Below are positions 17,501 to 20,500 of a DNA stretch of 64,000 nucleotides, piece by piece (position 1 is the first letter of the stretch; every line of letters begins with the position of its first letter). The stretch lies in assembly GCF_057098645.1 (NCBI RefSeq), contig NZ_CM169472.1; one strand, given 5' to 3'. The position numbers are program-made.

Positions 17501-20500
17501 GGCATCCGCATCACCAGGCCAGAGATTTTTCACATGTACCGAACTTAACCAGGACCGCGTTCTGTACTTCAAGGGACAGCTTGTCAAAATTGACGTTAAT
17601 AGGATCGGATTCTGGTTCGACCGGAATAAAGGAAGCGGATTCCTCATCCCAGCGGTTTTCCTGCATATATTCGGTATCCCAGGAGTCGATAGCAGGGCGG
17701 GGCATGCCGGGTTTATCTTCACAGACAAGAAATTTATAAGCGCAGTCCTGAGCAGCAGGATATTGCTCCAGGAATTGCCAGGTAAATTTGGCACGGGCGC
17801 GGCGTTCATCACCGGCTTCAATGGCAGTGGCTACAGCAACTGCGCCCTCTTCTTTTATTGCCTGTTCGTCCGGAATGGCGGCGCAAATAAAGACTTTACT
17901 CATTTTGTTTTAACCTCATTACAGATTTAAGGGTGAACAAATCCCTGCCATTGCTGGCATATAAAAATGAAACCGGATATTAATTACGGTGCTGTTTTAA
18001 AGTCCTGCCGGTATTTCGTTATTATTAGTGTGAGTAGTTTTATCTACCGGATAACAGTTACCGGGAATTTTTTGTTCTGCTGCTGCAGCCATGCATTCTT
18101 TCATTGAACCGTATAAGCCAGTCACCAGCTCAAGAGATTCGCCGGAAACAAGATAAACTGTCAGAACGAGTGCAAATGTTGTATTCATTGTTTATATCCT
18201 TTTTGCAGCAGGTCCAGACGAGCCAGCATTGAAGGAATGCATACTTCATTTAACAGGTCCTGCTCGAGTTTTCTCTGCTTAATGGCGTCTTCAATAAATG
18301 TTTTGTCTCCAGTGATAACGCCAATTTCGAAACGAAGTTCAGACGTGCTGGCATTACATGATAACTTTTCCATTATCGCGTCCTCAACAATGAATTTTGT
18401 GATGCGGTGCCTGGTGCCTCCAGGTGACGTTAACCAGTTAACAATTAACGCCGGATACAGAGAATCCACCCATAACACTGTTTTTGGTTTTAACTGTTCC
18501 GCGTGCGCTGAGCCGCATTCACCGCATCACAAAATTCACTTTTAAAAAAGGGCGGCAGAGCAGTTACGGAGTAAAACTGATACCGCCAAATGTCACCAGA
18601 ATATTGATAACAGAGGGCGTTGTAGCGGGGTTGTCACTTAAGCGTATGGTCAACCTGACAACCCGGTGTCCTCAACTGGGGAAGGAATAACCCCGCCATA
18701 CTTACCGCCGCGCCATTTCGCGGATTGCCACAACCGGAAGCGCACGTTCGAAGAAATCTAACGACAAGCCTTCTAAGGGAAAGAGCTTCGCCGTACGCTT
18801 TCGCGTTGTGTGCCTGCTTTTAACCACGTCAGGCGAGGTGGTTTCCGTCGTTCCCCAACGACAGGAAATCTGTATAATCTGGATATCCCCAACAACAGGA
18901 AGGTGTTTTATATGGTGGTTCAAAAGAATTGTTCAGGTACTGGTAAGCCTGCGGACAGGTCGGACATTCCGAATACCAGGAAACATATACCTGAGAAAAA
19001 CATTCGACCAAAACCATCTCCAGCTCCTTCAGAGGAGAGGGGGAACAGCAACAATCAAACAAGCAGGTGATGATATATGGACCGGGATGATATTCTTGAC
19101 AGGGTTTTATATGGTTATTTTCTTGAACAACTATTCTCTGTAGCGACTGGTCGTCTCGATAAACTTCTCTCAGTGGTGAGTATTATCCTCGGTTTATCTG
19201 TCATTGGTGGATTTATTCCTGAAGTTTCTGGAGTTCTCATTGTTGTGATAGCAACCGTTCAAACGATTTACGGATTCGGACAAAAGTCAGGTAACGCAAT
19301 GAGAAAATCCGCAGAATATCTGCAGCTTTATGATGATGCAGAAAAATATTCCGATTCGGAATTGAAAATGCAGTTAAAGCTCCTGGAAAAAACAGATGAT
19401 AATATTTGGTCGTCGCTTAAAGATATCGCAATCTTAAAAAACCAGATCAAAATAGGAATCTCCGTAGAACAACAAGAGAAACTGTCTGCAAAATCCAAAT
19501 TGATGCGATTCCTTTGTGGTTAGGAATACCCAGATTGTTAAAGAGCATGCCGGATGCTTACCCGTGTCCGGCGAACGTATTCCACTTCGCCTGTGGAGAA
19601 CTCTTTAATTACTAACCTTCATCAGTCAGAGTTTCTTGCTAACCAGCGACGCGCGCCAGCTTCCGTTTTAAACGTTTTGCTTCTGGTATACGTCATCGCG
19701 GTGAACGTGCCGTCCAGGTTGGGGAATACTCCGCATACCAGAGATTCGTTGTTGCCAAGATTGAGCATATCCATGTTGACCTCATTTACCCTTAACGCCG
19801 GGTCGCGGAACTAAAAACCTGCTGCGCTGTTATACAAAGTGTTCCCGCCGTCATGTTCATACGCCTCGGGCTGGCTACTTAACCCCTGGCCACTGCCGGG
19901 TAACTCGAGGTATTGCCCTGCATTCTGTGGGGTGGGTGGGTGATGAATAAACAATAGCACTGCTATTTTATTGTGTAAATAGTAATGCTATTGTTTTTTT
20001 GGAGGTAAGAAAAAAAACCACCCGAAGGTGGTTGTTGGTAGGAATGATTAACAGCTTTTGTTTGGATACTGCCTTCGTGAGTGAACTACATTTACGATCT
20101 CGATGTTAGATGCTGTTACTCGGTAAAGTATTATGTAGTTAGGATGGGTCACTATCTCACGAAGGCCTAGAGCTCTTTCGCTTGGTGGATACAGGTAAGG
20201 GTGTTCAGAAAGTGACAAAACTGATGTTTCAATGCGTATTTTTAGTCTACGTGCAGCGGGAGGGTTTTCCTTGGCAATATAGGCTACGATCTGACGCAAA
20301 TCATCACGCGCAGAAGGTAGCCATAAAATGGGCAGCATTACTCACTCCTGTTCGTCGAAGCTATTTGCGCAATAAGGTTTTCCATTTCAGCCATTACTTC
20401 GTCATGCGGAATTGCAGGACGGGGGTCTGCGAGGCTTGCTGCCACTTTGGTGCGTAACCATTCGTTATAGCTGTTTTCTTGTTCGATTGTTTCAAATTCT

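Follow-up and report, generated by a model that had tools for sequence, protein, structure and literature searches.

Two adjacent plus-strand genes of a Qin/Rac-type lambdoid prophage, encoding a soluble proline-rich peptide of 52 amino acids (aa) and a 148-aa protein with two transmembrane (TM) segments, occupy the slot that holds the exclusion gene sieB in the Rac prophage of E. coli K-12, and are preceded by a leader homologous to the sieB leaders of phages P22 and lambda and of Rac. They lie in a stretch of 64,000 nucleotides (nt) of contig NZ_CM169472.1 (assembly GCF_057098645.1), hereafter called the window, where they face the minus-strand early-left operon. We propose that positions 18812-19523 form a self-contained cargo ("moron") unit that would be expressed in the lysogen, and we consider it somewhat probable, largely by analogy with SieB, that this cassette is an abortive-infection/exclusion module with the membrane protein as effector, the peptide as its cytoplasmic partner, and the resident phage spared by the antisense RNA of the slot.

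The gene pair and its conservation

The small open reading frame (ORF) runs on the plus strand from an ATG at 18912 to a TGA at 19068-19070 (18912-19070, 52 codons and stop; product MVVQKNCSGTGKPADRSDIPNTRKHIPEKNIRPKPSPAPSEERGNSNNQTSR), and its Shine-Dalgarno (SD) sequence, AGGAAGGTG, is found at 18897-18905 with the ATG 6 nt further on. The stop codon is separated by 6 nt (19071-19076) from the ATG of the membrane-protein gene (19077-19523, plus strand, ending in TAG), whose own SD sequence, AGGTGA (19065-19070), lies within the 3' end of the small ORF. Direct reading of the sequence thus agrees with the preliminary description of this stretch, which had reported a 52-aa proline-rich ORF with a ribosome-binding site 6 nt before a 148-aa membrane-protein gene, as a candidate superinfection-exclusion pair. 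Its placement of the pair opposite the early-left operon is equally correct: the minus-strand neighbors are an exonuclease, DUF1482, dicB, the small RNA (sRNA) DicF, DUF1391, RelE/RelB and a cI-like repressor, and past the repressor the plus strand carries cro-like and YdaT genes. The "sieB-like position" can even be taken literally. The gene order in K-12 Rac is kilR (-), kilS sRNA (-), sieB (+), ydaF/DUF1391 (-), ydaG, racR (-), ydaS (+), ydaT (+), and that of the window is dicB (-), DicF (-), the pair (+), DUF1391 (-), repressor (-), cro-like (+), YdaT (+), which matches Rac around sieB; in addition, homology to the promoter and leader of sieB in P22, lambda and Rac covers the 100 nt that precede the small ORF. 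At the place of DicF, Rac has the kilS sRNA.

The 52-aa product contains seven prolines, is soluble and net basic, and has no hydrophobic segment. It was compared with diverged relatives (41-91% identity) from genome assemblies and IMG/VR, 53 loci in all. In 45 of them the large gene is preceded, at a distance of 6-18 nt, by a short ORF. These ORFs encode 16 distinct peptides of 39-52 aa, which share the core [DKE]-H-[IML]-[PSA]-[ES]-[KR]-x-[IV]-[RK] (KHIPEKNIRPKPSPAP in the window) with an invariant His, followed by a proline run; a narrower form of the motif reads H-[IML]-P-[ES]-[KR]-x-I-[RK]-(P/T)-x-P-polyPro. Both termini are variable. Pairwise ratios of nonsynonymous to synonymous substitution (dN/dS) are 0.07-0.38, with synonymous sites saturated, which indicates purifying selection on the small ORF. 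Both ORFs are genuine genes, beyond what chance would give. The divergence of the peptide is correlated with that of the membrane protein (Spearman 0.76). When a profile of the peptides was used as query, annotated homologues were found in Proteus mirabilis, Arsenophonus nasoniae, Symbiopectobacterium and Salmonella, and no relatives outside the cassette context were detected; in Proteus, Arsenophonus and Symbiopectobacterium the peptide gene immediately precedes a 148/149-aa gene, and the two are bordered by recombination genes and a repressor/Cro pair. The same pair is found in the cultured Providencia phage PSTNGR2lys (MW145137). The preliminary description had made its proposal depend on whether related prophages keep the small ORF, and it is indeed conserved, across at least six genera; as a unit the pair is kept in Enterobacterales prophages and in the one cultured phage, always between recombination genes and repressor. 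The 52-aa peptide gave no match in Pfam, PHROG or PADLOC. A lipoprotein or Rz1-like identity was rejected for lack of a hydrophobic signal segment and of a conserved Cys, and so was the idea of a conserved ORF on the minus strand opposite the small ORF, because the open frames present there shift between loci and their start is not conserved.

The word "pair" needs one qualification: the two genes are co-conserved in 45 of the 53 loci, and the association is not obligate. In the other eight (L035-L037, L043-L046 and L049) the small ORF has been lost between two GCAGGTG repeats (microhomologies), leaving a 9-codon stub that is out of frame with the intact 148-aa gene; these deletions occur on two alleles of the large protein (89% and 91% identity). 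The small ORF is also missing from P0031, a distant family member whose context is P22-like (immI). The eight loci with a large gene and no small ORF mean that the peptide is not indispensable; it is selected, yet dispensable for carriage of the large gene.

The 148-aa protein, for which the preliminary description had called for TM prediction, contains a hydrophobic stretch of 43 residues (27-69) interrupted by PEVS, which forms a 2-TM hairpin (approximately residues 31-47 and 52-68). Basic residues flank the hairpin on both sides, so both termini should be cytoplasmic. The predicted layout is that of an inner-membrane protein with an N-terminal helix, the 2-TM hairpin and a helical cytoplasmic tail of 80 aa, and the AlphaFold2 model built on a 65-sequence alignment is all helical (predicted local distance difference test score, pLDDT, 88; helices 3-44, 48-65 and 67-86). 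The protein matches PHROG 6315, a family to which no function is assigned, at 4e-24, and belongs to a family of ~150-aa proteins that comprises 84 homologous clusters at 50% identity. When 65 family members were scanned with NCBIfam profiles, 31 matched SLATT_4 (best 2.2e-5, 24 bits; curated cut-off 55 bits), and sub-threshold matches were also obtained to SLATT_1 (12/65) and SLATT_fungal (2/65). The matches always fall in the same register, approximately residues 3-96 on profile positions 3-105 of 154; the protein of the window itself scores 14.5 bits against SLATT_4 (E = 0.024, residues 33-92 on positions 36-105), which is below the cut-off. PADLOC models gave sub-threshold matches to the "2TM effector" of the cyclic oligonucleotide-based antiphage signaling system (CBASS; six of 65 members) and to "RTasSLATT", the SLATT protein associated with reverse transcriptase (RT; four of 65), and a Pfam scan of the 65 members yielded just two faint SLATT matches. 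Because every SLATT and CBASS score is below its curated cut-off, we call the protein SLATT-like and do not name it a SLATT member; it looks like a remote relative of the SLATT-type 2TM effectors. A PDB sequence search with the family profile returned noise only. Weak matches to TIGR04402 ("mobilome CxxCx(11)CxxC protein") were seen in six family members at residues ~50-110; CxxC pairs are common in other cargos of the sieB slot.

Homology to SieB itself (PF14163) was considered and rejected. No Pfam match was found for the window protein at E<=1 and PF14163 was matched by none of the 65 family members, while the SieB proteins of P22, lambda and Rac, used as positive controls, match it at ~1e-29 to 1e-31; hhalign of the family profile against the SieB profile gave a probability of 0.7%, and BLASTP against Rac SieB gave nothing. 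An internal start like that of Esc, the truncated form of SieB, is not supported either, as M75, the sole internal Met past the TM hairpin, is not conserved in the subfamily alignment. The earlier idea of an exclusion pair therefore holds for the slot and the leader, which are truly those of sieB, and fails as regards the proteins, neither of which is a SieB homologue.

The sieB-type leader and its minus-strand hairpin

Aligned over the 100 nt upstream of the first gene, the leaders of the cassette and of the P22, lambda and Rac sieB genes share one layout: interleaved stems, a CCCC-loop hairpin, an element resembling a -10, a repeat of the sequence of the loop and 3' arm, and the SD sequence. 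At the left end (18812-18843) the stem GCCTG (18812-18816)/CAGGC (18830-18834) is interleaved with the stem AACCAC (18822-18827)/GTGGTT (18838-18843), a pseudoknot-like or alternative arrangement, and the motif TTTTAACCACGTCAGGCGAGGTGG at 18818-18841 occurs in a single copy in the window (0 expected). Compensatory changes in the stems are found elsewhere: GCCCGG/CCGGGC in Rac, GTCTG/CAGAC, CTAC/GTAG and GACCCTC/GAGGGTC at three other loci (L050, L002 and L007, respectively), and CCTCA/TGAGG in the Providencia phage.

A promoter of the P_sieB type is predicted on the plus strand at 18850-18885, with a weak -35 at about 18850-18855 in the hairpin loop, a -10 TATAAT at 18873-18878 and a start at about A18885. 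Both promoter and start were placed by alignment to P22 (BK000583; annotated sieB promoter 29690-29720, mapped RNA start 29727), and a -10-like element stands at the conserved position in all leaders. The alignment suggests that this promoter would be active in the lysogen of the window prophage, with the transcript starting near 18885; with such a start the mRNA would begin with the second of two direct repeats, B (18853-18866, CCCCAACGACAGGA) and B' (18887-18900, CCCCAACAACAGGA), both read on the plus strand and 34 nt apart. B consists of the hairpin loop and 3' arm; B' corresponds to the mRNA 5' end and runs into the SD sequence. The two change together from locus to locus (CAACAAC, CTACAG, CTACAA, CAATGTAAT, CAACATAA, CACAACACA, ACCACAACG), and they may possibly be the specificity determinant of antisense-mRNA pairing. 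A reading of the CA-rich repeats as GcvB or CsrA targets was dropped, since in several loci the repeats are neither CA-rich nor GGA-bearing.

The leader hairpin at 18842-18868 (arms 18842-18852 and 18857-18868) functions as an RNA structure of the minus strand, on which its loop is GGGG (CCCC, 18853-18856, on the plus strand). Over the inner 6 bp in 16 distinct leaders, 92.7% of cells are standard pairs when read on the minus strand, and 76.0% when read on the plus strand. A G·U on the minus strand (A·C on the plus strand) is seen in 16 cells and the reverse in none. The covariation score of the hairpin is above those of all 500 shuffles. RNAfold predicts the minus strand to be the more stable one in 18 of 19 leaders, where it forms the GGGG-loop hairpin in one common register; the mean energies are -9.2 kcal/mol for the minus strand and -5.2 kcal/mol for the plus strand. 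No Rfam family matches the leader hairpin. For P22, reviews that cite Ranade and Poteete (1993) describe a 105-nt cis-encoded antisense RNA, sas, that pairs with sieB mRNA and switches translation from SieB to its truncated antidote Esc. By analogy, and because the module spans ~107 nt in P22, the leader hairpin would be the equivalent of sas, and the coordinates given here would be those of the sas-like RNA. Two other arrangements were set aside: a switch formed in the plus-strand RNA by the hairpin arm and both repeats, as the plus-strand hairpin fails to fold in most loci, and mRNA structure masking the start of the large ORF, with which a start region 25-85% unpaired and devoid of conserved structure is not consistent. 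Phage mEp460 (L010, 2640-2682) has the same left part of the leader followed by a different hairpin, TCCTTCTT...AAGAAGGA, whose 3' arm includes the SD sequence of a 66-aa ORF, a different regulatory solution in the same slot.

The leader is found well beyond this cassette. Its motif TTTTAACCACRTCAGGCKMGGTGG is present in at least 120 IMG/VR contigs, and the homologous segment of the P22 sieB leader matches 141 phage records. Among the 120 matches listed (L061-L180), the ORF behind the leader is SieB in 21, the 148-aa family in 10, the 66-aa mEp460 type in 4 and something else in ~85; the recurring other cargos among these matches are zinc-ribbon/coiled-coil double-CxxC proteins of 143-200 aa, zinc ribbons of 66-67 aa, membrane proteins of 106 aa and 157 aa, and a 317-aa protein. 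With one leader before many unrelated cargo ORFs, the slot is a cargo hotspot with a shared promoter/antisense platform. No paper on the protein family, its accession or the sieB-slot hotspot was found in the searchable literature, which is incomplete.

Proposed function and alternatives

SieB brings about exclusion of the abortive type, in which macromolecular synthesis is halted midway in infection by related phages, P22 itself not being one of the triggers. The cassette shares with the SieB/Esc/sas system of P22 (and with sieB of lambda and Rac) the slot and orientation; a promoter and 5' leader that are homologous and agree in the arrangement of hairpin, -10 and repeats; a structured minus-strand RNA at the mRNA 5' end, consistent with sas; an inner-membrane product that has two TM segments in its N-terminal part, followed by ~80-100 aa of cytoplasmic tail; and two translation starts on a single mRNA. 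It differs in that the 148-aa protein has no sequence or profile similarity to SieB, and in that the cassette consists of two separate ORFs, whereas SieB/Esc are a full-length and an in-frame, N-terminally truncated form of one protein. Having the same place, promoter and antisense-RNA leader as sieB, the cassette is probably an alternative anti-phage module, and the SLATT-like character of its large protein suggests that it would act by damaging the membrane and aborting infection, and not by keeping phages from entering.

We therefore picture the module as follows. The P_sieB-type promoter would, by homology, fire an mRNA from near 18885 that encodes the soluble peptide and then the inner-membrane-anchored protein. 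In the lysogen the membrane protein would lie dormant until infection by a foreign phage, upon which it would damage the membrane and abort the infection, as with SieB; the peptide, as its cytoplasmic partner, could be an activator, a sensor or a brake. During lytic growth of the resident phage, early-left transcription would cross the unit in the antisense direction and yield, as P22 sas does, a structured RNA with the GGGG-loop hairpin, which would pair with the mRNA 5' end and the first ribosome-binding site and silence the peptide, possibly together with the coupled membrane protein, so that the phage does not exclude itself.

Other membrane effectors offer partial parallels. Like the SLATT effectors of CBASS (2TM) and RT-associated systems, the large protein has an N-terminal helix, a tight 2-TM hairpin and further helices; unlike them, it stands alone at 148 aa, with no nucleotide-sensing, cyclase or RT partner fused to it or encoded nearby, and it is paired with a proline-rich peptide of 39-52 aa. 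The pairing of a SLATT-like protein with such a peptide was found nowhere in the literature searched. Lambda RexA/RexB is a prophage-expressed two-gene abortive infection system near the immunity region, with a membrane effector and a cytoplasmic partner. The cassette resembles it as a two-gene prophage layout beside the immunity region and differs in that there is no homology, that Rex is on the repressor transcript, that RexB has four TM segments and that RexA has 279 aa.

Several observations count against the proposed module. The small ORF is deleted in eight of the 53 loci, with the large gene intact. The best SLATT score, 24 bits, compares with a cut-off of 55, and the similarity is confined to the N-terminal ~100 residues, a hydrophobic part in which matches easily arise from composition. 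A nucleotide-sensor partner, the usual companion of SLATT domains, is not present: a search of the surroundings for SMODS, SLOG, TIR or RT partners met solely recombination, sRNA, DUF1391 and repressor genes. The window's protein has no PADLOC defense-model match above noise. A consensus promoter/terminator scan returned no sense promoter, antisense promoter or terminator; it missed the P_sieB-type promoter because the -35 is poor. Finally, when the peptide was fused to the protein through a (GGGGS)5 linker and modeled in AlphaFold2 from a paired alignment of 13 rows, no confident docking was obtained and the peptide had a pLDDT <50, a result that is uninformative.

To one alternative we give an appreciable minority share of our belief, namely that the small ORF is a mere translated leader, acting through translational coupling or through sensing of translation or proline by means of its polyproline, and that the 148-aa protein acts alone; this would be compatible with a defense role of the latter. 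It would account for the polyproline runs of 4-8 residues in many peptide variants, for the deletion variants that retain the large gene, for the distant member P0031 that has no small ORF and for the missing docking signal in the fusion model. It is at odds with the selection on the peptide (dN/dS 0.07-0.38, the invariant His and the conserved [IV]-[RK] before the proline run) and with the absence of any conserved mRNA structure joining the ORF to the downstream start. The variant of the window, PKPSPAPS, moreover has no consecutive prolines, so stalling of the kind relieved by elongation factor P (EF-P) is not conserved, and a polyproline-stalling leader was rejected as a general explanation. 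We also regard it as quite unlikely that the large gene encodes a lysogenic-conversion membrane protein unrelated to phages (stress, ion homeostasis, colicin or antibiotic resistance) that merely uses the lysogen-active sieB promoter. Many morons are non-defense genes, no convincing match to known defense models was obtained, and the cargos of the slot are very diverse, with functions that are not known; against this, SieB, the sole characterized occupant of the slot, is an exclusion protein, antisense self-silencing fits best a function harmful to phage growth, and the remote SLATT, CBASS-effector and DRT-SLATT signals suggest conflict systems.

An addiction module of the hok/mok/sok type, in which the membrane protein would be the toxin, the small ORF a mok-like leader and the antisense RNA the antitoxin, with no anti-phage role, appears improbable. 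The similarities are a short ORF before a membrane-protein gene, at a distance (6-18 nt) that allows coupling, and a structured minus-strand RNA that covers the leader and the first ribosome-binding site. Type I toxin-antitoxin systems, however, have hydrophobic toxins of <60 aa and an overlapping, masked leader ORF, while the protein here is far larger at 148 aa, the ORFs do not overlap, and the leader ORF is conserved at the amino-acid level as a peptide. The downstream start is not structurally masked either, as the large ORF has its own SD sequence and a start region that is not consistently sequestered; the large gene survives deletion of the leader ORF, and no minus-strand promoter was found in the consensus scan. 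Furthermore, SieB and dozens of cargos that are not membrane proteins are expressed from this leader too, so the antisense element, common to unrelated cargos, belongs to the slot and not to a toxin. That the cassette is a decaying, now functionless remnant in a defective prophage is highly improbable: the insertion sequence (IS) in the replication gene of the window and the split integrase of a close relative (see below) could be cited for it, but both ORFs and the leader are intact, purifying selection acts across genera, and a viable cultured phage carries the pair.

Within the abortive-infection/exclusion proposal, a bolder version, which we hold to be rather unlikely, would make the sieB leader (promoter plus sas-type antisense) a portable self-immunity switch for many unrelated abortive effectors, with the SieB/Esc logic laid out here in two ORFs. 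The lysogen would be armed by peptide and SLATT-like protein; lytic antisense would block the first start only, leaving the membrane protein harmless without its activator; and B/B' would set which phage's antisense disarms which prophage. Because the large ORF has its own SD sequence and a start that is not consistently masked, a switch like that of P22, in which translation would use the second start while the first is blocked, is possible. If the pair does exclude phages, it would add a two-component membrane effector, a stand-alone SLATT-like protein plus a proline-rich peptide, to prophage immunity. The leader marks a single lambdoid slot with at least a dozen unrelated small cargo families, and thus a sequence-addressable hotspot for new defense genes, and its shared antisense element offers an explanation of how each phage might avoid its own system.

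Prophage setting and neighboring features

E. coli O145:H28 RM12761 has a prophage that is almost the same as the window in sequence; in its NCBI annotation the matching region has the 148-aa gene only, the small ORF being uncalled. The cassette is carried by 67 of 5426 complete E. coli genomes (~1%), including Shiga toxin-producing E. coli (STEC) of serogroups O145, O157 and O103. Alignment against cassette-free phages puts its borders at ~18805 and ~19545, and homology with one of these, 640R1, stops near the left end of the leader (18812-18843). The G+C content is 35-44% in the cassette (35-42% in the 148-aa gene) versus ~50% in the flanks.

On the left the cassette is adjoined by a full-length DicF sRNA (18550-18601, minus strand; Rfam RF00039, 76.9 bits, E=1.9e-16), which sits upstream of dicB (18185-18373, minus strand). 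The interval separating the two contains, at 18396-18536 on the minus strand, a match to Rfam STnc100 that is below threshold (37.4 bits versus a gathering score of 47, E=9e-6). On the right, the 98-nt gap between the 148-aa gene and the convergent DUF1391 gene contains a hairpin at 19549-19572 (GCCGGATGC...GTGTCCGGC), and the plus-strand fold of the region 19515-19625 has -35 kcal/mol (z = -3.4). This hairpin may be the end of both converging transcripts; lacking a T-run, it would be non-canonical as a terminator. The 19515-19625 segment is phage backbone, because the cassette-free 640R1 has it as well.

Between the DUF1391 gene and the cI-like repressor, a RelE/ParE-RelB toxin-antitoxin pair (20048-20529, minus strand) forms a second accessory module of the immunity region. 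Further on, in the region 21907-23228, a replication-initiator-like ORF is interrupted by an IS element, so that 163 aa remain of what is a 368-aa gene in RM12761; the transposase (301 aa, 22323-23228, minus strand) is one that we take to resemble IS2 InsD. Because the IS element cuts this ORF, the prophage of the window is probably replication-defective. The close relative in RM12761 has a split integrase.

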